Below the pieces are notes generated by a model. It was not told the origin of the DNA. It searched no databases and worked only from the letters and a program-made list of their open reading frames with translations. The position numbers were made by a program, and so were the translations under genes. 32,000 nt of DNA from Acholeplasma laidlawii PG-8A (lineage in GTDB: Bacteria > Bacillota_I > Bacilli_A > Acholeplasmatales > Acholeplasmataceae), in contig NC_010163.1 of NCBI RefSeq assembly GCF_000018785.1, positions 210,001-242,000 on the forward strand, written 5' to 3'. Shown piece by piece: positions 4,499 to 26,908 of this stretch (position 1 is its first letter; each line of letters starts with the position of its first letter).

Positions 4499-5728
4499 TT
4501 ATGACAGGGTCTTTATAAATTCTTTGGCGTTTGCCACTGTAATTTCTTTACTAGTGACTAAATGGTTTACAACTTCATTAATGTTTGAAGGTTGTGCACC
4601 AGCTTCAAGTGCAACGTTTCTTGCATGTAATCTCATATGACCTTTATTAATACCGTCTGTAGTAAGTGCATAAAGTGCTGCAAAGTTTTGAGCAAGCCCA
4701 AGACATGCTGCAACTTTCATAAGCTCCATCGCATTTTTAACACCGAGTATTTTATGTGATAACTTAACCTTTGGTAGAATTCCCATAGAACCACCAACTG
4801 TACCAAGTGCCAAAGGTATTTTTATTTCACCAACTAAAAAATCATCTTTAACATACCACTTGGTCAGTGGAATGTATTTACCACTAACTGAAGCATAAGC
4901 ATGCGCACCAGCCTCAATTGAACGGGTGTCATTACCTGTTGCAAGCATTAGAGCACTAATACCATTCATAATTCCTTTATTGTGTGTTGCTGCTCTATAC
5001 GGGTCAATATGTGCATATGTAGAAGCAGCTGCAATATCTTTATGAATAACATCGGAGTTCTTTAAGTGTTTTGGATCAATTTTTACAGAAGCAGATACTA
5101 ATGCATCCACGGCTAGGTTGGATAGAATACTCATTAAAACTTCAGCCTTATAATCAATAGTTACAAAATGACTAATAGCTTCTAAAATGGTATTGATGGT
5201 GTTTGCACCCATGGCATCTAGTGTATTGATACTTGCATAAAAGCATACAAAGCCTTGAGTTTTATCTTCGACTTTAAATGACAATAAACCACCACCCAAA
5301 TTATGAATTTGTGGGTGTGCTTTATAAGCAATATCTTTAAATGTTTCTTTATGACTATTTAAGTAATCAATTAATGCTTTTGGATCAGATACGTTTTTAA
5401 AAATAATTTGACCAATCATTACACGATTGATTTCATCAATTTTAAAACCACCATTACGATAAATTATTTTAGCGGCATGAGCAGCACCAGCAATGACTGA
5501 AGGTTCTTCAGTTGCCATCGGTATATGGTATAAGACATCGTCAATTAAAAAGTCTGGAGCAACGCCTAAACCCACTTCATACGTCGTAATAAAGTTTTCA
5601 ATCAAGTGGTCAAAAACAATATCACCTGCACTTTTGTTTAGACTTGCATCGAATCTATCAATAGATTCTAATGCTTCAATACGTTCTTCAATAGATTTTT
5701 TGTAAAAGTTTTTTAGTAATTTATTCAT
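4499..5728 (-). CDS. mvaA: hydroxymethylglutaryl-CoA reductase, class II
   Basis: 409-aa protein with class-II HMGR hallmarks (EEPSVIAGA, DAMGAN, GTVGG, NKGHM..H). AGAGGTG SD upstream of the ATG. Confidence 0.9.
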   Translation of the reverse strand: MNKLLKNFYKKSIEERIEALESIDRFDASLNKSAGDIVFDHLIENFITTYEVGLGVAPDFLIDDVLYHIPMATEEPSVIAGAAHAAKIIYRNGGFKIDEINRVMIGQIIFKNVSDPKALIDYLNSHKETFKDIAYKAHPQIHNLGGGLLSFKVEDKTQGFVCFYASINTLDAMGANTINTILEAISHFVTIDYKAEVLMSILSNLAVDALVSASVKIDPKHLKNSDVIHKDIAAASTYAHIDPYRAATHNKGIMNGISALMLATGNDTRSIEAGAHAYASVSGKYIPLTKWYVKDDFLVGEIKIPLALGTVGGSMGILPKVKLSHKILGVKNAMELMKVAACLGLAQNFAALYALTTDGINKGHMRLHARNVALEAGAQPSNINEVVNHLVTSKEITVANAKEFIKTLS

Positions 5729-11071: not shown

Positions 11072-11679
11072 TTAGAAAATTATATGAAGAGCATTTTTTA
11101 GAAATTGATGCACTATTAACTAAAGAATGTAAGCGACTAAAATTAAGTCCTAATGAAGTGGTTGTTTTAAAAACATTGTTTCAAAACTACAAAAAACGCA
11201 CCTTTTCTATCTTAAGTATTACAAGAAAAATTGAACTTTCAAGTAACGATGTTGCTAAGTGTGTAGATAAACTTATTAATAAAGGTTTTATATCTTTAGG
11301 ATTAGAAACTAGAAATGATAAAGAAGTTGAAGTGTTTGACTTATCAGGCACATTTGATAGAATCACAGAGCTTTATGAATCTGATATGGAAGATATTAAA
11401 CGTGAACGTTATGAAACTCAAATTTCACACACCATCGAACTTTTAGAAAAGCATTTAGGTAAGGCATTATCTAGTTTAGAACTTGACATAGTTCGCTCAT
11501 GGTATGACGAATCTTTATATACGCATGACGCTATTATTTCTAAAATTGAAGAAATAGGACCATCTGGAAAGTTTTCACTTAAGTTTTTAGAAAGAACATT
11601 AAATAGAGAAAAATATATCGCAGAACCACTTGATGAACAAGCAGAACGCGCGATTGATGAAATATTTAAGGCTATCTAA
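11068..11679 (+). CDS. dnaD: DnaD domain-containing replication initiation protein
   Basis: N-terminal winged-helix-like region plus a C-terminal DnaD/DnaB_2-type repeat (LSSLELDIVRSWYDE...FLERTL). The ATG overlaps the rnc TGA. It lies immediately upstream of nth, as dnaD-nth does in Bacillus. Confidence 0.7.
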   Translation: MIRKLYEEHFLEIDALLTKECKRLKLSPNEVVVLKTLFQNYKKRTFSILSITRKIELSSNDVAKCVDKLINKGFISLGLETRNDKEVEVFDLSGTFDRITELYESDMEDIKRERYETQISHTIELLEKHLGKALSSLELDIVRSWYDESLYTHDAIISKIEEIGPSGKFSLKFLERTLNREKYIAEPLDEQAERAIDEIFKAI

Positions 11680-12323
11680 TGACTAAAAGTCAACGTATAT
11701 TTTTCAGTCACTATTTAGAAGAGCTTTTCCCAGATGCAAAAGCAGAACTAGATTTCACAAATAATTTTGAACTGATTGTTGCAGTTGTACTATCGGCACA
11801 AACAACAGATATCGCGGTCAACAAAGTCACAAAGGATCTATTTAGAAAATATCCCACTCCAAACGATCTCATGCATGCAGATGTTGATGATGTTATGGAC
11901 ACAATTAAAACAATTGGTCTATATAAAACAAAATCCAAAAATATCATTGGTCTTGCTAAAAGATTAGTTGAAGATTATGATGGACTTGTACCAAGTGAAA
12001 GAAAAGATTTAGAATCACTACCAGGTGTTGGTAGAAAGACAGCGAATGTTGTATTATCTAATGCATTTGGTATACCAGCGCTAGCTGTAGATACGCATAT
12101 CTTAAGAATTTCTAAAAGACTAGGGCTTGCAGATGAAACAGATGATGTACTCGAAGTTGAAATGAAATTGAATAAACAATTTCCTAAAGAACTGTGGCAT
12201 AAACTTCATCATCAACTTATCTTTTTTGGACGATATCATTGTATTGCTAGAAAACCTAATTGTGATACGTGTAAGATGCAAGATATGTGTCCACACTTTA
12301 AAAATGTAATTTCTAAACAATAA
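11679..12323 (+). CDS. nth: endonuclease III
   Basis: HhH-GPD motif (LPGVGRKTANVV), catalytic Asp context (AVDTH) and a C-terminal 4Fe-4S cluster loop C-X6-C-X2-C-X5-C (CIARKPNCDTCKMQDMC). The start overlaps the dnaD stop (TAATG). Confidence 0.95.
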   Translation: MTKSQRIFFSHYLEELFPDAKAELDFTNNFELIVAVVLSAQTTDIAVNKVTKDLFRKYPTPNDLMHADVDDVMDTIKTIGLYKTKSKNIIGLAKRLVEDYDGLVPSERKDLESLPGVGRKTANVVLSNAFGIPALAVDTHILRISKRLGLADETDDVLEVEMKLNKQFPKELWHKLHHQLIFFGRYHCIARKPNCDTCKMQDMCPHFKNVISKQ

Positions 12324-12343
12324 AAAAATATCAAATAACAAAA

Positions 12344-12383
12344 TAAAAATCTACATTTTTCTTTGAGAAGATGTAGATTTTTA
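12344..12383 (+). terminator. intrinsic terminator after nth
   Basis: 13-bp stem TAAAAATCTACAT / ATGTAGATTTTTA with a 14-nt loop and T-rich 3' flank, 21 nt after the nth stop. Confidence 0.7.
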
Positions 12384-12425
12384 TTATTGTAAACACTATA
12401 ATGAAGCCAAAAAGGGAGATTTTCA

Positions 12426-13655
12426 ATGTATATAAATTTGGGATATTTAAGAGGGCAGATAAGATTACGAAACCCAGAGATAACAAACAATAGTGACAAC
12501 ATAGGTTCTATGTTGAAATACCACCGGTTGAAACTTAATTTAACACTCGAAGATAGTTCCGATGGTATTTGTAGCGTAAGTTATTTATCTAAAATAGAAA
12601 ACAGTCTAATTAGACCAAGTGAAAAATACATACTACAGCTTGAAGAAAGATATAATGCTAAATTCTTTAACATAGGTAACCAGCACAATGAACTACTACA
12701 TCAACTTATAGAAAATTTGTTCTATGAACAAGAAGAAGTAATTGATGATGCTTTGTTTACCGAAGATACGTATCAATCTAGATTAAACAAAACTGGATAC
12801 CTAATTAGTCGAAACAAGTTTAACGAAGCCAAACTAAACCACCAAGAACTCAATCCATATATTAAAAATTTAAATGGTATTGAACTTAAATTTTATATAT
12901 TTCTAACATCTAAACTACTTAGCTTTGAAGGTAGACTAAAGGATGCTTTTTCTGTTTTAAATATAGAAACAGATCATTATCCACTATTACATCTAGATAT
13001 ACTCATAGCTTCTGAAAGAATACACTTAGCAACTAAAATGAATCATCATCCATACATTGTACTTACCTATGAAGCATTGATAGATCAATGTATAGAAAAT
13101 GAATTTTATCATAAAGTACACGAACTTAAATATCACTATCTAACCTACATGGTTCAATTTATTAATGAGCCAATGCTTAATGAACTCTTGGATAAATCTA
13201 AAAACTTAAAACCCGATCAAAGAGCTTTTGTAAAGGCTAAATATTTCTTCATGAATATGGACTATGAACTAGCTATTGAAACGCTTAATAGTGAACCTTT
13301 AAACAGTAAGGCGTCACTCGAATTAAAACTCCTTATTCTAAATAGGCTAAACCAATCTTCTATCATGAATGAATCACTTAAATCATTGTCTAATATTGAC
13401 AACAAGCAACTTAAATTAATACACGCCTACTTAGTACTTAAAAATACCAGAGCTACAAATATTGAGTCCTTAGTTCAATTTATTCTAACAGAGGTTTTAA
13501 AATCAAATGATCTACCAGATGACATCTTATATTTAAATTTTTGGTACGAAGAAGGGTTGCAATGTTTAAAGAAAGTAGGCTATTATAAAGACGCAACTAA
13601 GTTGGGTAGATTAATATTTAGAAAAATAAAAGATTTAACGACTATTTTTGATTAA
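12426..13655 (+). CDS. XRE-family HTH transcriptional regulator with long helical-repeat (TPR/RNPP-like) C-terminal domain
   Basis: The HTH_XRE pattern IGSMLKYHRLKLNLTLEDSSDGICSVSYLSKIENSLIRPS is followed by about 330 aa of helix-rich repeats. SD AAGGGAG lies 7 nt upstream of the ATG. Confidence 0.8.
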   Translation: MYINLGYLRGQIRLRNPEITNNSDNIGSMLKYHRLKLNLTLEDSSDGICSVSYLSKIENSLIRPSEKYILQLEERYNAKFFNIGNQHNELLHQLIENLFYEQEEVIDDALFTEDTYQSRLNKTGYLISRNKFNEAKLNHQELNPYIKNLNGIELKFYIFLTSKLLSFEGRLKDAFSVLNIETDHYPLLHLDILIASERIHLATKMNHHPYIVLTYEALIDQCIENEFYHKVHELKYHYLTYMVQFINEPMLNELLDKSKNLKPDQRAFVKAKYFFMNMDYELAIETLNSEPLNSKASLELKLLILNRLNQSSIMNESLKSLSNIDNKQLKLIHAYLVLKNTRATNIESLVQFILTEVLKSNDLPDDILYLNFWYEEGLQCLKKVGYYKDATKLGRLIFRKIKDLTTIFD

Positions 13656-13721
13656 ATAACTAAATAATGTGATACACTATAAATAGTTTAATAAACTAAA
13701 AAAGATGAGTGGGAGGTTTAC

Positions 13722-13769
13722 ATGGTTATAAAAAAATGTACACTATTCATTATAGGTAACAATAAATAA
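13722..13769 (+). CDS. unannotated small ORF, 15 aa (MVIKKCTLFIIGNNK): candidate signalling pro-peptide or regulatory leader peptide
   Basis: Consensus SD GGGAGG (13711-13716), a 5-nt spacer, then ATG. TAA stop at 13767-13769. It lies 66 nt after the regulator stop on the same strand, with no terminator in between. Confidence 0.4.
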   Translation: MVIKKCTLFIIGNNK

Positions 13770-13854
13770 TTTATTTGTAGGACTTATAATGAAGGCTTAT
13801 TTATTTATAAAATACCCTTCATTCAGATATAAAAGCTTTTTTATATGTATCTTT

Positions 13855-13878
13855 AAGAGGGGAAACCCTCTTTTTATT
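13855..13878 (+). terminator. intrinsic terminator / possible attenuator upstream of ABC operon
   Basis: Stem AAGAGGG / CCCTCTT closed by a GAAA tetraloop and followed by TTTATT. It sits 32 nt upstream of the ABC gene ATG. Confidence 0.65.
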
Positions 13879-13909
13879 ATCTAAAAACACGACGAACAAG
13901 GAGAACATC

Positions 13910-15739
13910 ATGAAATTTAAATCCCTTATGAAACTAGCCAAAGGACACTTGTGGGGCTATATTATCTTAATTATCTTAACGATATTCCACCGCTTCTCAT
14001 ACTCCTATGTGCCTTTATTCACTCAATATATTATTCGTACTTTAACGCTTCGTTTAAGTACTGACCCATTACCTCCTGATTTACAAACGGTCAATCTACC
14101 AGCATTTGTAGTAAACTTCTTTGAATCCGGTGAAACGATTTTAATGATCGTGTTTTATGTTGCGATTACATTAATATTTTATCAAGCATTTAGATACTTG
14201 ATGATGTATTTTGAATTAAGTTTACGTGGTCGTATTCAAGAAAGTATTGCAAAAAAATTACGTAATAGATTATATGATCACATTCAAAACTTAAGTTACA
14301 AATATCACAACAATGCAGATAGTGGTGACTTAATACAAAGAGTTACATCAGACGTTGAAACTACAACAGGTTTTGTAGTCTTACAGTTTATGCAACTTAT
14401 TGGACTATTTGCATCACTATTTAGTGGTGTATTCCAAATGTATCATATTAATACCACCATCATGTGGGTGTGTTTAGCAGTTATTCCCGTCTATGCGATC
14501 TCATCTATTTTCTACTTTACAAGAATTGAAAAGATATTTGAAAAAGTTGAACATGATGAATCAGAGATGATGACAGTCATTCAAGAAAATGTGAGTGCTT
14601 CAAAAGTTGTTAAAGCATTTGCTAATGAACCATTTGAATTAGAGAAAATGGAAAAGAAGAACAAGCAATACACCAACAGTAATATACGTGCTAACAAAGT
14701 AGTAGCAATATATTGGGGAAGTATGGACTTTATCTCAATGGCACAATATGCACTTGTTACTGTATTAGCCATCCACTTTGTAAGAACTGGTGAAATGGAT
14801 GGTGCAAGTTTTGCTGCATCCTTAATGCTAATTGGTTTATTAGTATGGCCAATTCGTGGGTTAGGTCGATTAATTAATGAATTTACTAAAGCGTTTGTTG
14901 CGATTGGTCGTATCAACCATATATTTGAAGAAAAAACTGAATATGAACAAGATGGTCATTTAGAACCAGAGATTCATGGTCATATTGTTTTCAACAAAGT
15001 AAGTTTTAAATTTGAAGATGATGCAAACTATTTATTAAAAGATATCTCATTTGAAATTAAACCAGGTGAAACAGTTGCAATTATTGGTAAAACTGGCAGT
15101 GGTAAAACCACAGTTATTAATCTATTAATGCGTATGTATGAATATGAAGGATCCATTACAATCGACGGTGTTGAGTTAAGAGAAATCAAAAAACAACACA
15201 TGAGAAAATCCATTGGAGCTGTCCTTCAAGATCCATTCCTTTATTCTAGAACGGTCTATGAAAATATATCGATTACAAATAAAACAGCAAGTAAAGATAA
15301 AATTATTACAGCAGCTCAAACTGCAGCACTTCAAAATGATATTCATACCTTTAAAAATGGTTATGAAACGATGGTTGGAGAAAAAGGTACTACGTTATCT
15401 GGTGGACAAAAACAAAGAGTTGCGATTGCGCGTGTACTAGTAAGTGATAAACCAATACTTATATTTGATGATGCACTATCTGCTGTTGATAATAAAACAG
15501 ATATGATGATTCGTGGTGCATTAAACCAAAAGGAACATCAATCCACAAACATTATTATTACACACCGTATTACAACAGCGAAAGAAGCTCACAAGATTAT
15601 TGTCATAAATAATGGACAAATTGAAGACATCGGTACACATAAAGAGCTCGCACATAAAGATGGTCTTTATAACAAATTATGGGGCATTCAAGGTAAACTT
15701 GAACAAGAATTCCTAGACTTAATTGAGGAGGGTGCTTAA
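13910..15739 (+). CDS. ABC transporter ATP-binding/permease protein (type I exporter half-transporter, degenerate-site subunit)
   Basis: Six-helix TMD plus an NBD. Walker A is GKTGSGKTT and the signature LSGGQ is canonical. Walker B is ILIFDD, with Asp (15470-15472) replacing the catalytic Glu. AAGGAG SD 6 nt upstream. Confidence 0.9.
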   Translation: MKFKSLMKLAKGHLWGYIILIILTIFHRFSYSYVPLFTQYIIRTLTLRLSTDPLPPDLQTVNLPAFVVNFFESGETILMIVFYVAITLIFYQAFRYLMMYFELSLRGRIQESIAKKLRNRLYDHIQNLSYKYHNNADSGDLIQRVTSDVETTTGFVVLQFMQLIGLFASLFSGVFQMYHINTTIMWVCLAVIPVYAISSIFYFTRIEKIFEKVEHDESEMMTVIQENVSASKVVKAFANEPFELEKMEKKNKQYTNSNIRANKVVAIYWGSMDFISMAQYALVTVLAIHFVRTGEMDGASFAASLMLIGLLVWPIRGLGRLINEFTKAFVAIGRINHIFEEKTEYEQDGHLEPEIHGHIVFNKVSFKFEDDANYLLKDISFEIKPGETVAIIGKTGSGKTTVINLLMRMYEYEGSITIDGVELREIKKQHMRKSIGAVLQDPFLYSRTVYENISITNKTASKDKIITAAQTAALQNDIHTFKNGYETMVGEKGTTLSGGQKQRVAIARVLVSDKPILIFDDALSAVDNKTDMMIRGALNQKEHQSTNIIITHRITTAKEAHKIIVINNGQIEDIGTHKELAHKDGLYNKLWGIQGKLEQEFLDLIEEGA

Positions 15740-15740
15740 G

Positions 15741-17579
15741 ATGCAACATCAAGAACAAGAAAACGAAATTAAAAAAGTATCACTTCCTGTTTGGGGTAGA
15801 TTATTTAAAATAATATTAAAAGATAAACGTAGTTTTATCATCATGATTTCTATTGGTGTATTTGTTGCACTTCTAGATGCACTCACTGTAGTCATTCAAC
15901 AATATGCACTAGATACATTTATTGAAAAAGGTGATTATACATTCTTTACTCAGTACACAATTCTAAACATCCTTGTTGCACTAGGGTTTGGTTTAGGGAT
16001 TTGGGGTTTTATTTACCAAAGTGGAAAAATTGAAGCCAATGTCAATTACCTATTAAGAAAAGAAGCGTTTAGAACACTTCAAAGATTGCCATTCTCATAC
16101 TATGATAAAACCCCACAGGGTTGGATCATGGCTCGTATGACAAGTGACTCAAAAAGGCTTGCTAACATCATTTCATGGGGTATCGTTGATGTCATTTGGT
16201 CACTGCTACTTATGATATTTACACTAACCATTCTTTATTTTTATTTTTGGAAATTAGCAATCATTGTGACACTTGCAATACCTATGATGTTTCTAGTTAC
16301 ATTGCTATTTAGAAAGCGTGTATTAAAAAGACACCGTCAAGCAAGACACTATAACTCTGAGATTACCGCAAAATATTCTGAAAGTTTTCATGGTGCTAAA
16401 ACATCTAAGTCCCTCGTTATTGAATCTGAAAACCTAAATGAATTTAAACAAACAACAAACAAGATGTATAAGGCAAGTGTTAAAGCGCAAAGCCTATCAG
16501 CAATGTATTCTGCTGTATTATTACTCGCTTGTTATATCTTTGTAGCGATTGTCATGTATACGGGTTCAAGCTTTACCATTGAAGGTGCAATCACCATCGG
16601 GGTAGTATACTTATTCATTAGATCAACAGTGAGTTTCTTTGATCCAATTATTAACTTATCTAACTTTATTTCCCAACTCCAACAAGCACAAGCAAGTGCA
16701 GAACGTATCTTAGAGCTTATTATGACAGAATCTCAAATTAAAGATAGTGATGAAGTCGTATCTAAATACGGGGACTGGTTTCATAAGAAAAAAGAAAATT
16801 GGGAACCACTTAATGGTGATATTGAATTCAAAGATGTTACATTCTCATACAATGAAAATGAAATCATCTTAGATAACTTTAATATAAACATAAAAGCAGG
16901 TATGAGTGTTGCATTAGTGGGACATACAGGTAGTGGTAAGACAACCATTGTAAACTTAATCTCAAGATTTTACGAACCAACTCAAGGTCAAATCTTATTA
17001 GATGGCGTAGACTATAAAGATAGAAGTATCTCATGGCTACATGAGAAATTAGGCTATGTATTACAATCACCACATCTATTTTCAACAACCATTCTAGAAA
17101 ATATCCGTTATGGACGTTTAGATGCAACAGATGAAGAAGTCATTGAAGCCTCAAAAGCAATCGGATTACATCCGTTTGTAGAAAAATTAGAAAACGGCTA
17201 CCAAACACATGTAGGTGAAGGTGGTGGCTTGCTTTCTATGGGACAAAAACAGCTCATCTCGTTTGCTAGAGCAATCCTTGCAGAACCAAGTATCTTAATT
17301 TTGGATGAGGCAACTTCATCGATTGATAGTGAAGCAGAATCATTAATTCAAGATGCTACTAAGAAATTATTAAAAGGGCGTACGAGTTTAATCGTTGCTC
17401 ATAGATTATCAACGATTGTAGACTCTGATTTAATTGTCATGTTAGATCAAGGTAAGATTACTGAACAAGGTACTCACCATGAACTGTTATTAAAACGAGG
17501 GGCTTACTACGATCTTTATAGAAATCAATTTTTAGAAGAAAAATCAAAAGTTTATGAAGCTGAAATGAATAAACTATAA
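15741..17579 (+). CDS. ABC transporter ATP-binding/permease protein (type I exporter half-transporter, consensus-site subunit)
   Basis: TMD plus NBD. Walker A is GHTGSGKTT and Walker B ILILDE is canonical. The signature is deviant: LSMGQ (17232-17246). ATG 15741 has a GGAGGG SD 8 nt upstream. The ORF-track TTG 15723 is unlikely to be the start. Confidence 0.9.
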   Translation: MQHQEQENEIKKVSLPVWGRLFKIILKDKRSFIIMISIGVFVALLDALTVVIQQYALDTFIEKGDYTFFTQYTILNILVALGFGLGIWGFIYQSGKIEANVNYLLRKEAFRTLQRLPFSYYDKTPQGWIMARMTSDSKRLANIISWGIVDVIWSLLLMIFTLTILYFYFWKLAIIVTLAIPMMFLVTLLFRKRVLKRHRQARHYNSEITAKYSESFHGAKTSKSLVIESENLNEFKQTTNKMYKASVKAQSLSAMYSAVLLLACYIFVAIVMYTGSSFTIEGAITIGVVYLFIRSTVSFFDPIINLSNFISQLQQAQASAERILELIMTESQIKDSDEVVSKYGDWFHKKKENWEPLNGDIEFKDVTFSYNENEIILDNFNINIKAGMSVALVGHTGSGKTTIVNLISRFYEPTQGQILLDGVDYKDRSISWLHEKLGYVLQSPHLFSTTILENIRYGRLDATDEEVIEASKAIGLHPFVEKLENGYQTHVGEGGGLLSMGQKQLISFARAILAEPSILILDEATSSIDSEAESLIQDATKKLLKGRTSLIVAHRLSTIVDSDLIVMLDQGKITEQGTHHELLLKRGAYYDLYRNQFLEEKSKVYEAEMNKL

Positions 17580-17588
17580 AATAAAAGT

Positions 17589-17647
17589 AAAAAGACAGTA
17601 TGTTTCCTACTATATAATAGGAGGTAAAAAACATGCTGTCTTTTTTT
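17589..17647 (+). terminator. terminator-like two-tier hairpin that contains the SD and AUG of the downstream gene
   Basis: The outer stem has 14 bp (17589-17602 / 17632-17645, one G-U) and is followed by T7. The inner stem has 7 bp (17603-17609 / 17618-17624) and pairs TTTCCTA with the SD region TAGGAGG. ATG 17633 lies in the outer stem. Confidence 0.55.
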
Positions 17648-19699
17648 AATCTACTTATGAATATTGCTATTTTATGGACCAATGAAGTGATTTTAATGCC
17701 TATTGGAGCATCACTGGATAAGTATAAGAATTTGCCCGAGGCTACTTTATATGTAAATGATGAAGTTGCAGTAGATAAATTAATGTATTATGAATATGAA
17801 ATCAACTACACAAGTTTTAGCGTCATTAGAACCCATGTAGTAGGTACGTACACGGTTTGGTACCGAGCGCACTTTCCTACCTTAGGATTTGAAAGTGAAG
17901 TAGCTATTACTTTTATTGTCAAGGATACGATGCCACCAACGATAACTGGTCCTATGGATTTTTATGTAGATGTTGGAACTAAATCCATTGATTATAAAAC
18001 ACTTATTAACTATACAGATAACTATACGGTAGATAAGGATTTAATTTTAAACATCTATGCTGGTCAAGTGAACTTGAATCAACTGGGTAGTTATCAAGTG
18101 ACATACAGTGTAAAAGATAAAGCATTTAATGAATCGATTTGGGTAACAACTATCCATGTAGTAGATAATGTAAAACCCGTAATCAAGCAAAAAGCGGGTA
18201 TCACAATTTTAATAGGAGAGGCCTTAAATTTAGATAAGTTTTTTACCTTTAGTGATAACTATGACACTGTGCTTGATGTAAGTTATGATGATACATTGAT
18301 CCACTATCAAAATCCCGGAAGCTATCCTTTATCAGTTACTGTAAAAGATCAATCAGGAAATGAAGTCACTGTAGATGTTCAAGTACAAGTAGTCGACACA
18401 ACAAGTCCGGTTATTGTATTAAAAACGAACAATATAAAGGTAAATTACTTAACCGACCTCACTAATGATTATCTAAGGTCCTTTATCATAGATGTTAAAG
18501 ATAATGTGGATAGTTTAAACATAGAAGATGTTTTAATAACAAGCTACATCGATACCCACATACTTGGTAAATATGAAGTGATTTATAACATAAGAGATTC
18601 AAATAGCTTAATAGGAGAAGCAAAACTTGCTGTTGAAGTTATAGATAACGAAGCACCTAAAGTAAGTATGAGAGAAGATATTTATGTTGATGTACATAGT
18701 TTAGAGCCATATATTTATGACTACTTAATCATTGAAGATAACTACAACAAATTAGAAGATTTAACAATCACTAAAACAGGAAGTATCACGATGTCAAAGT
18801 TGGGTGCTTACCGGGTCATTATAAAAGTAGTTGATCAAGCAAAAAATGTGGCAGAGTATCCAGTGATTGTAAACGTCATTGACCAGATAGCACCAGTCTT
18901 AAAAGTACCTAGTGAACTTATGATAACAAACTTTTTAAGACCGGACTATCTAAAAATAATCGAAGTCAAAGACAATTATGATAAGGATATAGTAGTTATC
19001 ATAGAAGATGCTGATATGAACTATAAAGAGCTTGGTGAACACCAAGTTACAATACGTGCTATAGATAGTTCTTTAAATGAAACAGTAGAACACATAGTGA
19101 TTAAAATCATTGATTTAAGTTATCCTGAAATTATTTTAAAGACACATCAGGTATATCTTCCTTACGGTGTAGATAGTGTTGACTATCTATCGTATGTAGA
19201 AAGTGTGTTTGACAGTTATGATAAAGATTTATCTATCTTTGATATAAAATATAAGTCTACTTTAGATTTTAATAAAGTGGGCTTATATCAGGTGATATAT
19301 GAGTTAACTGATAAATCGAATAATGTAGGAACACAACTACTTTATATCTACTTAACTGATTTTGAAAAACCAGTGATTGAAGCAACCCATATCACCATCA
19401 AAAAAGGTGCATACTTTAACTATAAAGATCATGTAACTGCTTATGATAACTATGATGGTGATATATCTAATTTAGTTAAAATGAACCCGCAATTTGTACC
19501 TATCCAACAAGTGGGTTACTATGAAATACTATTTTATGTACATGATTCATCCGGAAATTACTCAGAAATTAAAGTCTTACTCACCATAGAAGCTACAAAT
19601 GATGTAATGGATTACATATATTATATTGTTGGTGGTGTAATTATTTTAGGTAGTATCATAATTTACTACATATACATCAAAAAACGTGAAAATATCTAG
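17633..19699 (+). CDS. membrane-anchored surface protein with ~8 tandem Ig-like (DUF5011-type) domains
   Basis: AGGAGG SD 8 nt upstream. The N-terminus is hydrophobic. Repeated ~77-83-aa modules each end in V.V.D...P.I and contain DNYD...G.Y.V.Y...D..GN. A single C-terminal TM helix (YIYYIVGGVIILGSIIIYYIYI) is followed by KKRENI. Confidence 0.8.
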   Translation: MLSFFNLLMNIAILWTNEVILMPIGASLDKYKNLPEATLYVNDEVAVDKLMYYEYEINYTSFSVIRTHVVGTYTVWYRAHFPTLGFESEVAITFIVKDTMPPTITGPMDFYVDVGTKSIDYKTLINYTDNYTVDKDLILNIYAGQVNLNQLGSYQVTYSVKDKAFNESIWVTTIHVVDNVKPVIKQKAGITILIGEALNLDKFFTFSDNYDTVLDVSYDDTLIHYQNPGSYPLSVTVKDQSGNEVTVDVQVQVVDTTSPVIVLKTNNIKVNYLTDLTNDYLRSFIIDVKDNVDSLNIEDVLITSYIDTHILGKYEVIYNIRDSNSLIGEAKLAVEVIDNEAPKVSMREDIYVDVHSLEPYIYDYLIIEDNYNKLEDLTITKTGSITMSKLGAYRVIIKVVDQAKNVAEYPVIVNVIDQIAPVLKVPSELMITNFLRPDYLKIIEVKDNYDKDIVVIIEDADMNYKELGEHQVTIRAIDSSLNETVEHIVIKIIDLSYPEIILKTHQVYLPYGVDSVDYLSYVESVFDSYDKDLSIFDIKYKSTLDFNKVGLYQVIYELTDKSNNVGTQLLYIYLTDFEKPVIEATHITIKKGAYFNYKDHVTAYDNYDGDISNLVKMNPQFVPIQQVGYYEILFYVHDSSGNYSEIKVLLTIEATNDVMDYIYYIVGGVIILGSIIIYYIYIKKRENI
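17924..19591 (+). repeat. seven clear tandem protein-level repeats (period 77-83 codons), plus a degenerate eighth upstream
   Basis: The boundary motif D-x-x-x-P occurs at residues 98, 178, 255, 338, 417, 494 and 576. The repeats are diverged at the DNA level. Confidence 0.7.
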
Positions 19700-26638: not shown

Positions 26639-26677
26639 TAACTGTACAAATTAGGAAAACTGTAGGAGGTTTTTAAT

Positions 26678-26908
26678 ATGGATATTTTTGATAAAGTCAA
26701 AGGACTTATCGTTGATGAACTTGCAGTAGATGCATCTTTAGTAAATCCTGATGCTAGATTAGTAGAAGATTTAGGTGCAGATTCAATCGATGCTGTAGAG
26801 TTAATCATGACTGTAGAAGACGCATTCTCAATTGAAATTTCAGACGAAGTTCTACAAAATATCAAAACTGTGAATGATTTGGTTTCATATATCAAAGACA
26901 ATCAATAG
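26678..26908 (+). CDS. acpP: acyl carrier protein
   Basis: 76-aa acidic four-helix protein with the phosphopantetheine site LGADSIDAVEL. Strong SD (GGAGG). Confidence 0.92.
   Translation: MDIFDKVKGLIVDELAVDASLVNPDARLVEDLGADSIDAVELIMTVEDAFSIEISDEVLQNIKTVNDLVSYIKDNQ

Follow-up and report, generated by a model that had tools for sequence, protein, structure and literature searches.

A 15-codon open reading frame (sORF) lies directly behind the gene of a helix-turn-helix (HTH) regulator and ahead of an ABC exporter operon in the window, the 32-kb stretch of DNA analyzed here. This arrangement raises the question of whether the frame encodes a signaling peptide sensed by its neighbor, as a sequence-only reading had proposed, or acts within its own transcript. 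We favor, with moderate confidence, the view that a ribosome-sensing transcription attenuator, with the sORF as its leader peptide, gates the exporter operon (13910-19699), beside a regulator with an RNPP fold. The locus comprises the following genes:

12426-13655, + strand: XRE-HTH regulator, 409 aa, an ORF with an RNPP-like helical-repeat domain
13722-13769, + strand: 15-codon sORF, MVIKKCTLFIIGNNK, proposed leader peptide, with a conserved in-frame ATG
13910-15739, + strand: ABC exporter subunit 1, 609 aa (Pfam ABC_membrane and ABC_tran; Walker B ILIFDD, degenerate site)
15723-17579, + strand: ABC exporter subunit 2, 618 aa counted from TTG 15723 (Walker B ILILDE)
17633-19699, + strand: 688-aa surface protein with Ig-like domains (Pfam Bact_surface_Ig-like and Big_3), the conserved last gene of the module

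Structure prediction places the regulator close to the peptide-sensing RNPP receptors. As anticipated from its sequence, the 409-aa protein combines an XRE HTH with a helical-repeat domain, on which the ORF, a Pfam HTH_3 match at residues 30-77 (E 1.4e-5, above the cut-off) and a confident AlphaFold model (pLDDT 88.9, pTM 0.87) agree; SinR-type HTH domains were matched in a PDB profile search, and everything outside the HTH is all-helical. When this model was compared with Foldseek, the structural check proposed earlier for the C-terminal domain, the best matches were RNPP receptors only, headed by NprR (5dbk_A, E 1e-4, TM 0.57/0.65) and followed in order by PlcR, PrgX, ComR, Rgg2, and AimR. 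The protein thus has the N-terminal HTH DNA-binding domain found in all RNPP members except Rap and, in the fold model, the C-terminal TPR or TPR-like superhelical domain. By sequence, it falls into none of the Rgg, ComR, PrgX, NprR, PlcR, AimR, or Rap subfamilies; no NCBIfam or Pfam family was found beyond the HTH, and sequence and profile searches of the PDB matched the HTH and nothing outside it. As modeled, the regulator resembles peptide-sensing RNPP receptors by fold only. Published surveys place the RNPP family almost entirely in Bacilli and leave Mollicutes unmentioned, and a literature search for RRNPP systems in Acholeplasma, Mollicutes, or Tenericutes gave nothing relevant. The earlier guess of a wall-less Mollicute relative was right: the regulator is 88% identical to its A. 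laidlawii counterpart, with 96% for nth and 98% for ABC2. A 409-aa ORF on the minus strand (4499-5728), considered as a paralogue of the regulator, was rejected, being an HMG-CoA reductase.

The genes downstream form a conserved module. Subunit 1 has Sav1866 (9e-82), BmrC/YheI (5e-81), and TM288 as its best bacterial half-transporters in the PDB, while subunit 2, for which an alternative start exists at ATG 15741 behind GGAGGG, is 56-97% identical among Acholeplasmataceae loci. Together they are a predicted asymmetric heterodimer, BmrCD-like and near BmrC. The surface protein follows the exporter in 14 listed loci, distant clade included, at 27-90% identity. The exporter genes are a strongly conserved core pair, accompanied by a surface protein that is conserved as well, and no obvious accessory drug pump. 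Throughout the family, the RNPP-fold regulator goes with this exporter: in most of the Acholeplasmataceae loci inspected, the two occur with no sORF at all, and in the distant-clade loci inspected the regulator directly precedes the exporter, again with no sORF between them.

Where it is present, the sORF is conserved. It begins 66 nt past the regulator stop on the same strand, exactly as first described, and its Shine-Dalgarno sequence (SD; GGGAGG, 13711-13716, 5-nt spacer) had been ranked among the best of the window, of which it is indeed the sole GGGAGG; the shorter GGAGG occurs seven times on the + strand, with an ATG 4-10 nt downstream in five cases. The proposed comparison across orthologous regulators bore out frame, SD, and F-I core alike: ATG-started ORFs of 14-18 codons behind a GGAGG-type SD were found downstream of the regulator in 13 sources, corresponding to 12 distinct leader sequences and regulator identities down to 35-36%. 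A short ORF with its own SD is what a leader-peptide attenuator requires, and here the SD-to-ATG spacing is 5-10 nt in all 12 leaders. The distance from the ATG to the Phe codon is 24, 27, or 30 nt and the in-frame ATG, which we took as the start (other starts were checked by eye only), is always kept, the frame surviving length changes of +3 and +6 nt. These comparisons indicate a conserved sORF in excess of chance occurrence, and it is probably translated. The only conserved residues are F-I-[IMG]-[GD], which are the codons of RNA segment 1 (below), while the remaining residues vary freely; the Phe codon is TTC in 12 of 12 leaders, in a genome of 32% GC, and we read this invariance as a constraint on the RNA. 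The peptide itself has a basic N-terminus followed by a hydrophobic core and carries no signal sequence. Elsewhere in the window, a strong SD at 26665 was considered as a second leader and rejected, as it precedes a 76-codon ORF read by eye as an acyl carrier protein.

Between the regulator and the exporter, the leader contains these elements:

13668-13678, + strand: extended -10 promoter TGTGATACACT (TG at 13670-71, hexamer TACACT at 13673-78), conserved
13700-13717, + strand: segment 0, purine-rich GATGAGTGGGAGG including the SD GGGAGG; pairs with segment 1 or 3
13743-13757, + strand: segment 1, CTATTCATTATAGGT, codons L-F-I-I-G; pairs with segment 0 or 2
13783-13795, + strand: segment 2, CTTATAATGAAGG; pairs with segment 1 or 3
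13815-13824, + strand: segment 3, CCCTTCATTC; pairs with segment 0 or 2 or, as antiterminator, with the terminator 5' arm
13825-13852, + strand: AT-rich hairpin separating segment 3 from the terminator, in both minimum-free-energy and centroid structures
13855-13876, + strand: intrinsic terminator AAGAGGG-GAAA-CCCTCTT plus T tract, from the terminator scan; segment 4 is its 5' arm and segment 5 its 3' arm

The extended -10 element occupies an equivalent position in each of the 12 leaders, as T[GA]TGATA[CG]AA/CT or AGTGCTAAAAT, and is also kept in L007, L008, and L010, all of which lack a FIIG-type sORF. Leader transcription would start near 13685-13687, and the sORF is not simply co-transcribed with the regulator, given this predicted conserved promoter of its own; the TATAAA previously noted between the genes is not the conserved promoter element. 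The overlapping palindrome ACTATAAATAGT (13676-13687) does exist, but perfect 5-2-5 palindromes number 72 in the window (2.25 per kb) and this one is not conserved in orthologous leaders, so that we rejected it as an operator candidate. Reading the close clade by eye revealed no shared operator motif. The regulator probably sets promoter activity upon sensing a ligand other than the sORF peptide.

The initial reading had correctly seen no terminator between regulator and sORF, but had overlooked the terminator and hairpins that separate sORF from exporter. The sole terminator-like site found lies past the sORF, at 13855-13872, and none separates the regulator stop from it. The terminator lies 37 nt before the exporter, and 34-41 nt before the exporter ATG in 12 of 12 leaders, placing it between leader ORF and first structural gene as in an attenuator. 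Its stems, compared by eye and without a formal count, differ in both arms (AAGAGGG/CCCTCTT, ACGAGGGG/CCCTCGT, ACGAAGGG/CCCTTCGT). The AT-rich hairpin carries a conserved T-rich motif, TTTTTTATATG, and is predicted to bring segments 3 and 4 together.

Upstream of the terminator, the segments can form a chain of mutually exclusive helices (0:1, 1:2, 2:3, 3:4, and 4:5) that is possible in every leader, with duplex energies for the five neighbor pairings of -5.8 to -15.7 kcal/mol. The best supported is 1:2 (-9.9 to -13.1 kcal/mol), in which 93% of alignment cells are paired, with compensatory UA>CG and AU>GC changes and an equal score in 0 of 500 shuffles, compared to just 35-59% pairing in slid registers. 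For 0:1 (-5.8 to -12.6 kcal/mol), 91% of cells are paired, two pairs have changed on both sides, and 12 of 500 shuffles scored equally. Changes of ATA>ATG or ATT>ATC within segment 1 are mirrored in its pairing partner, and 2:3 pairing survives sequence rearrangement (GAAGG/CCTTC, GAGGG/CCCTC, GAAAGAA/TTCTTTC, AGAAGGC/GCCTTCT). Segment 0 can also pair with segment 3 in all leaders (-8.9 to -12.5 kcal/mol). Helix 3:4, the antiterminator, is feasible in all leaders (-6.6 to -12.0 kcal/mol). It is short, at 5-8 bp, its z-scores are modest (-0.3 to -3.2), and the terminator is the stronger helix; on visual inspection, 3:4 seems weak in A. hippikon. Covariation statistics are weak because just 11-12 related sequences were available. 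Overall, mutually exclusive helices join a translated segment to the terminator, as in an attenuator, with covariation backing 1:2 and 0:1. The leader folds better than shuffled sequences (z = -2.99), and its nucleotides are more conserved than those of the regulator gene (98 vs 87%, 72 vs 67%, 70 vs 67%, and 68 vs 63%). It matched no Rfam family, either with the whole window at gathering thresholds or with 13600-13950 at E <= 1, and thus does not correspond to a described RNA family.

These helices suggest how a ribosome-sensing attenuator might work. With no ribosome, the nascent RNA would fold into 0:1, 2:3, and the terminator, and transcription would end at about 13873. A ribosome stalled on the SD, the start, or the first codons would mask segment 0 and leave segment 1 free, since the latter starts 21 nt past the A of the ATG; 1:2 could then form, leaving segment 3 to pair with the terminator 5' arm and allowing read-through into the exporter genes. 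A ribosome reaching the stop codon, which is always within the loop between segments 1 and 2, would release segment 2 to segment 3, and the terminator would form again. The likely trigger would be a slowdown or arrest of translation at an early stage, such as ribosome-targeting antibiotics bring about in bmrB-bmrCD. This is the least certain step, and because the exporter is core-like and not an obvious drug pump, the inducing signal is a guess.

Modeling of ribosome positions bears on this scheme in two ways. When transcripts were truncated ahead of the terminator 3' arm, placing a ribosome on the start codon gave P(3:4) of at least 0.98 in 9 of 12 leaders, and this footprint gave the highest 3:4 value, or one within 0.01 of it, in 10 of 12. 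In the window, L001, L002, and L003, 3:4 forms at any ribosome position, so that the switch logic is not discriminated there, and in L005 and L089 it never formed in this shortened-transcript model. Equilibrium folding of the full leader under a ribosome mask kept the terminator (P about 0.8-0.95) at every ribosome position in all leaders scored except L081, with unreliable values for L082, and the switch would thus have to be kinetic. Under the proposed scheme, read-through would depend on the ribosome's position on the leader ORF.

Relatives without the FIIG sORF help separate leader from regulator. Regulators of sORF-less lineages keep 49/53 and 50/53 (92-94%) of the residues invariant among sORF-bearing regulators, and no FIIG-type sORF was found in the flanks retrieved for these lineages. 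Leaders of the L007 type keep the terminator and an SD-like hairpin in the absence of the sORF. L010, a distant relative whose regulator is 28% identical, has an unrelated hydrophilic sORF of which codons 10-13 pair with the terminator 5' arm, a predicted pairing that amounts to the same antiterminator logic with a different peptide.

The chief competing explanation is a signaling cassette, in which the sORF encodes a communication peptide, short and hydrophobic or leaderless. After export and re-import, this peptide would bind the regulator and so enable it to activate the sORF/exporter promoter. In favor of this view, RNPP receptors make up all of the top structural hits of the regulator, the sORF lies directly downstream on the same strand with a strong SD, and a frame kept through two length changes together with a basic-then-hydrophobic peptide would also be expected of a signaling peptide. 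The RNA of the prgQ peptide of pCF10 likewise bears a terminator gating downstream genes. Leaderless peptides of 8-10 aa encoded beside RopB-type receptors and upstream of their targets are known (PMC10518010). The conserved residues of the sORF peptide are, however, exactly those fixed by RNA pairing. They form an internal core followed by 2-7 variable residues, whereas the active peptide is C-terminal in most RNPP systems, NprX being an exception. The peptide also lacks a secretion signal, its core stays unchanged though the receptor diverges to 35-36% identity, and the L010 sORF is hydrophilic and unrelated. As for the regulator, its sequence assigns it to neither Rgg nor NprR nor any other family; it remains intact and under equal constraint where lineages lack the sORF, and likewise in the distant-clade loci inspected, from which the sORF is absent. 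Of the peptide-signaling pair first proposed, the RNPP fold and the conserved sORF therefore stand, but signaling does not as the leading reading, since the core coincides with an RNA-paired segment and the sORF has a terminator behind it and a promoter of its own. We regard such a cassette as unlikely, even with dual-use versions counted in. Slightly less likely still is a dual role proper, in which translation of the sORF would set the attenuator and its L-F-I-I-G product would be a leaderless peptide sensed by the adjacent regulator.

Two further explanations dispense with signaling. On a par with the dual role, and so improbable to us, is a riboswitch-like or protein-binding attenuator whose pairing segments give rise incidentally to the SD-like GGGAGG and the ORF, with no purposeful translation. 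The GGAGG does lie within segment 0 and pairs with segment 1 or 3, the leader is more conserved than the regulator gene, and L007-type leaders preserve terminator and SD-like hairpin without any sORF. Such an RNA would nevertheless have to account for an ATG 5-10 nt from the SD in every leader, 14-18 codons staying open in AT-rich sequence where stops make up ~9% of codons (a rough estimate), the frame maintained across the +3 and +6 nt changes, the stop always falling in the same loop, and the missing Rfam match even at E <= 1. Finally, the sORF could be a small membrane or accessory peptide, or a substrate of the exporter, with the hairpins and terminator setting transcript stoichiometry or stability only. 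Although the core is hydrophobic and the sORF heads the exporter operon, 14-18 aa with polar ends fall short of the length of a membrane helix, the peptide is missing from the related distant-clade exporter loci inspected, and a hydrophilic one takes its place in L010; we consider this very improbable.

If the attenuator is real, an RNA switch in Acholeplasma ties a core ABC exporter operon to the state of translation, and control of the bmrB-bmrCD type reaches Mollicutes. The proposed switch is absent from Rfam and from the literature searched, and its unusually explicit five-helix design, with one helix containing the SD, makes it easily tested by mutation. In addition, a well-modeled RNPP-fold regulator fixed beside an exporter across Acholeplasmataceae extends the known range of this fold outside Bacilli and prompts the question of its ligand. 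If the dual role were true, wall-less Acholeplasma would have a peptide circuit of the cell-cell or autocrine kind, of which the literature searched gave no example in this lineage; in a weaker form, the RNPP-fold family would be a new peptide-sensing subfamily with its ligand encoded elsewhere. This family is conserved with the ABC exporter and the Ig-like surface protein across Acholeplasmataceae. The locus also holds a caution for automated detectors of receptors paired with small ORFs, as a conserved sORF beside an RNPP-like receptor is not by itself proof of a signaling pair.

In the ermC and cat leaders, ribosome occupancy of a short leader ORF picks between alternative hairpins, freeing or forming an SD or a terminator. 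Their targets are methylases, acetyltransferases, and ABC-F proteins, unlike the type I ABC exporter operon and surface protein found here, and no known arrest motif was recognized in the sORF peptide. Both ermC and vmlR are cited as leader-controlled resistance genes in PMC4191407. With NprR-NprX, PlcR-PapR, ComR-ComS, and Rgg-SHP, the locus shares an N-terminal XRE HTH joined to a TPR-like superhelical domain (PMC9765709), NprR being the closest solved structure and of similar size, and, as with nprX, papR, and comS, a small ORF just downstream on the same strand. It differs from these pairs in that the regulator has no sequence similarity past the HTH, the sORF lacks a signal sequence and has a conserved core dictated by RNA pairing, and lineages without the sORF retain the receptor unchanged. 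RopB and its leaderless peptides (LCPs), as presented in the parts of PMC10518010 used here, offer another likeness, a tiny ORF with no secretion or processing signals that adjoins an RNPP-type regulator and precedes the genes under control; LCPs, however, are mostly 8-10 aa and hydrophobic throughout, compared to 14-18 aa with polar ends here, their receptor is of the RopB/Rgg type by sequence while ours is not, and those parts make no mention of an attenuator RNA.

The closest parallel is bmrB-bmrCD of B. subtilis, in which BmrCD is controlled by leader-peptide attenuation (PMC4191407) and to which the Acholeplasma leader is likened by architecture. In both, a leader ORF preceded by an SD comes right before the genes of a heterodimeric ABC exporter, and an intrinsic terminator is combined with anti- and anti-anti-terminator structures, translation and switching being predicted in our case; the antiterminator is the weaker of the two structures in each, the terminator the stronger (PMC4191407). 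Subunit 1 matches BmrC/YheI (as above), and one ATP site is degenerate. Antibiotic induction, shown for bmrB, is only inferred here. The 162-nt bmrB has its terminator inside the coding region, whereas the 15 codons here are followed by a terminator ~85 nt past the stop. AbrB controls the promoter in B. subtilis, while an RNPP-fold regulator adjoins the leader in Acholeplasma, where the SD region is itself a switching segment in the predicted five-helix chain.

The 15-codon ORF (sORF) that the sequence-only reading had placed downstream of the regulator, with a GGGAGG Shine-Dalgarno (SD) motif and a 5-nt spacer, is present exactly as described, and no second GGGAGG occurs anywhere in the 32-kb window. 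That reading was silent on what follows the sORF, namely hairpins, an intrinsic terminator detected by a terminator scan, two ABC half-transporter genes, the first starting 37 nt after the terminator, and a gene for a 688-aa Ig-like surface protein. The features are as follows.

12426-13655, + strand: regulator ORF, 409 aa, Pfam HTH_3 at residues 30-77 and no other match
13668-13678: conserved extended -10 element TGTGATACACT, immediately 3' of the regulator stop
13704-13716: SD-bearing purine run GATGAGTGGGAGG (seg0)
13722 (ATG) to 13767-13769 (stop), + strand: sORF, peptide MVIKKCTLFIIGNNK, GGGAGG 5 nt upstream of the ATG
13743-13757: F-I-I-G codons CTATTCATTATAGGT (seg1), beginning 21 nt past the A of the sORF ATG
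13783-13795: CTTATAATGAAGG (seg2)
13815-13824: CCCTTCATTC (seg3)
13855-13872 plus T tract: intrinsic terminator (5' arm seg4, 3' arm seg5)
13910-15739 and 15723-17579: half-transporters ABC1 and ABC2
17633-19699: Ig-like surface protein

Housekeeping genes flank the locus (upstream recG, plsX, rnc, dnaD and nth; downstream flavodoxin and dnaE). The order nth, HTH-TPR regulator, ABC1, ABC2 and ~690-aa Ig-like protein (11679-19699 in the window) is Acholeplasmataceae-wide (related loci L001-L023 and L161-L164), with identities of 56-97% for ABC2, 27-90% for the Ig-like protein and only 25-88% for the regulator; exporter and surface protein look like a core functional unit. The window is chromosomal DNA, and its regulator is 88% identical to its counterpart in A. 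laidlawii strain 8195, as against 96% for nth and 98% for ABC2. Separately, an AT-rich hairpin with a T run 3' of nth (AAAATCTACAT...ATGTAGATTTT, 12346-12384), too poor in G-C pairs for the terminator scan to pick up, probably ends the upstream operon, so that the regulator would be transcribed from a separate promoter. The ABC2 start is ambiguous: the ORF finder chose TTG at 15723, giving a 17-nt overlap with ABC1, and ATG 15741, which sits 9 nt past GGAGGG (15727-15732), may be the true start.

Across 160 related loci of genomic and metagenomic origin, plus four added by exact protein look-up, an sORF with a GGAGG-type SD follows the regulator in 13 sources, 12 of them distinct, at regulator identities down to 35-36%; several metagenome loci are duplicates (L084 of L002, L163 of L004).

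sORF peptides in the window and in related loci (L numbers)
Window and L001 (A. laidlawii): MVIKKCTLFIIGNNK
L081: MLIKNCTLFIIGSNK
L164: MLIKDCTLFIIGSNK
L082: MVIKKCILFIMGDNN
L002: MYTQKSLLFIIGYLYL
L003 (A. granularum): MKSTKNHHFIIDRGIIIT
L004: MLTIKRKLFIMGEDY
L005 (A. oculi): MLKNTLILFIIGGLN
L006: MLIINAKLFIMGDQY
L088: MSGIIKTIKLFIIGDSLL
L009: MLKIRRGNPFIIGDLV
L089: MLKIRRSNPFVIGDLV
L161 (A. hippikon): MLIIRVKPFIGGNY

The conserved part of the peptide is F-I-[IMG]-[GD] alone, and the remainder is variable. The frame is preserved despite ATG-to-Phe distances of 24, 27 or 30 nt (the ATG being picked as the in-frame one, and other starts checked by eye alone), and the stop always lies 2-7 codons past the G/D. 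We take the sORF to be genuine, and its translation to be probable; that the leader acts as an RNA-only element is distinctly unlikely in our judgement.

The F-I-I-G codons pair with seg2 to make a hairpin stem. In this 12-bp helix, 93% of cells are standard pairs (11 distinct sequences), compared with 35-59% in slid registers; two positions changed on both sides (UA to CG in L009 and L089, AU to GC in L082 and L004), and the covariation score was reached by 0 of 500 shuffles. The Phe codon is TTC in 12 of 12 leaders, at a genome GC content of 32%. Each segment has an alternative partner: seg1 can pair with seg0 (91% of cells paired, two pairs changed on both sides, score reached by 12 of 500 shuffles), seg2 with seg3, a pairing kept across quite different sequences, and seg3 with the terminator 5' arm (GAGGGG). 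By RNAduplex, all five neighbour pairings are possible in every leader (-5.8 to -15.7 kcal/mol). Terminator stems vary between lineages on both arms while their distance to the exporter ATG is fixed, whole-leader folding beats shuffles (z = -2.99), and the leader is more conserved in nucleotide sequence than the regulator gene. Since the conserved extended -10 element opens the leader, the sORF is served by a separate promoter and comes first on the transcript of the exporter genes. Ranking SDs by strength also surfaced a 76-codon ORF (26678-26908), which from its sequence we read as a putative acyl carrier protein; its SD (GGAGG) is strong, and its extended -10 (TGATATAAT) illustrates the use of TGn-type extended -10 promoters in this genome.

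We favour, with reasonable though not strong confidence, an attenuator that has the sORF product as its leader peptide and controls a BmrCD-like exporter operon, next to an RNPP-fold regulator. With no ribosome, sequential folding would give the terminator together with seg0:seg1 and seg2:seg3; a ribosome stalled over the SD and the first few codons would cover seg0 and free seg1 to pair with seg2, leaving seg3 for the terminator 5' arm; and one reaching the stop codon would expose seg2 to seg3, so that the terminator would form again. Modelling offers only partial support for such a switch. In modelled transcripts stopping before the terminator 3' arm, the seg3:seg4 probability was at least 0.98 in 9 of 12 leaders when the ribosome footprint covered the start codon, and lower or variable in other ribosome states; in the window and its closest relatives it was high whatever the state. 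At equilibrium, full-length folds kept the terminator in every state, L081 excepted, which means that the switch would have to be kinetic.

The regulator had also been called RNPP/Rgg-like, a description that stands for the fold and not for the sequence. Its AlphaFold model (20 homologues) is confident and all-helical (pLDDT 88.9, pTM 0.87), and RNPP receptors come first in a Foldseek search of the PDB, headed by NprR (5dbk_A, E 1e-4, TM 0.57/0.65) and followed by PlcR (3u3w), PrgX (2aw6, 2axu), ComR (5jub), Rgg2 (4yv9) and AimR (6hp3), which supports "RNPP-like" at fold level. NCBIfam, Pfam and PDB sequence/profile searches recognised the HTH alone, with no match to Rgg, NprR or another family, and on this sequence evidence the regulator should not be assigned to any described RNPP subfamily. 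The published RNPP surveys consulted assign nearly the whole family to Bacilli, with no mention of Mollicutes. Partial matches to the N-terminal 120-170 residues in the Bacillales genus Alkalibacillus (L069, L072, L076; 29-34% identity) may link the regulator family to regulators of Bacilli.

A peptide-signalling cassette, as originally proposed, has in its favour that the regulator fold is RNPP-like and that the sORF is conserved, and the RopB-LCP precedent (PMC10518010) is a very short, unprocessed peptide encoded upstream of target genes, so that signalling is not dismissible on sORF size alone. We nevertheless consider a signalling role, dual use with an attenuator included, rather unlikely, because the conserved codons are one arm of a covarying RNA hairpin and because the regulator is kept where the sORF is not. 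The sORF is missing from two lineages, the A. equifetale type (L007, L086, L162), whose leader is of another kind but includes a terminator, and L008/L087, with a 66-nt leader; no FIIG-type sORF was found elsewhere in the L007- and L008-type loci. Of the 53 residues that are invariant in the 13 sORF-bearing regulators, those of the two lineages retain 49 and 50, inside the leave-one-out range of the sORF-bearing members (80-98%). The module is also conserved in a distant clade (Mariniplasma, Peloplasma and others; regulator ~25% identical), where the loci inspected have the exporter ~65-140 nt past the regulator, a TTGACT...TATACT promoter and no sORF. Further against signalling, an uncultured Acholeplasma (L010:7213-7410, regulator 28% identical) keeps the TGTGATACAAT promoter, a GGAGG SD and a terminator (GGTTGTGTAT-AAAC-ATACACGACC) in a different leader, and its sORF peptide MMNVFNKNKPTQHQTLSDFYLK is hydrophilic and unrelated to the FIIG type. 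There, in a transcript that does not yet include the terminator 3' arm, ACACAAC of sORF codons 10-13 base-pairs with GUUGUGU of the 5' arm: the same logic with another peptide.

These relatives show other putative regulatory features. In the A. equifetale-type leader (L007:4230-4380; also L086, L162), from which the sORF is lost, an SD-like GGGAG remains, sequestered by a short stem-loop (GGAG-AUGA-CUCC), and the exporter comes after a strong terminator, ACATGCAAGGAAGTCATTCTTTGCATGTTTTTT. In the distant clade (L015, L018, L019, L016), a near-perfect palindrome, C[CT]TATATACTTATATA[GA]G, overlaps the -10/start site of the exporter promoter (TTGACT-17-TATACT, ~60-110 nt past the regulator stop) and may be the operator at which the regulator binds; the window's clade showed no conserved palindrome of this sort. 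A TATCAAA-N6/7-TTTGAT(T) inverted repeat around a TTGATT -35, ~40-70 nt before the regulator start (L018, L019, L028, L059 and others of that clade), may be an autoregulatory site; no repeat of this form precedes the regulator in the window.

For a signalling role, the closest systems would be RNPP receptor-peptide pairs and the leaderless peptides of RopB-LCP. For the attenuator, comparison begins with the exporter, an asymmetric heterodimer with Walker B ILIFDD in subunit 1 and ILILDE in subunit 2, whose best bacterial half-transporter matches include BmrC/YheI (5e-81). In ABC1, Asp replaces the catalytic Glu after Walker B and a canonical LSGGQ is present, and a pattern search found no canonical LSGGQ in ABC2, which together imply that one ATP site is degenerate and the other consensus, an arrangement shared with BmrCD, TM287/288 and LmrCD. 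By analogy in mode of action, bmrB-bmrCD is the closest known system. Unlike bmrB, which has 53 codons, the leader ORF here has 15, the terminator lies outside it, and the SD is itself a switching segment. BmrCD is controlled through the leader peptide BmrB by ribosome-mediated transcription attenuation, with ribosome-targeting antibiotics as inducers, and its switch is likewise stated to be kinetic, the antiterminator being, as here, weaker than the terminator (PMC4191407).
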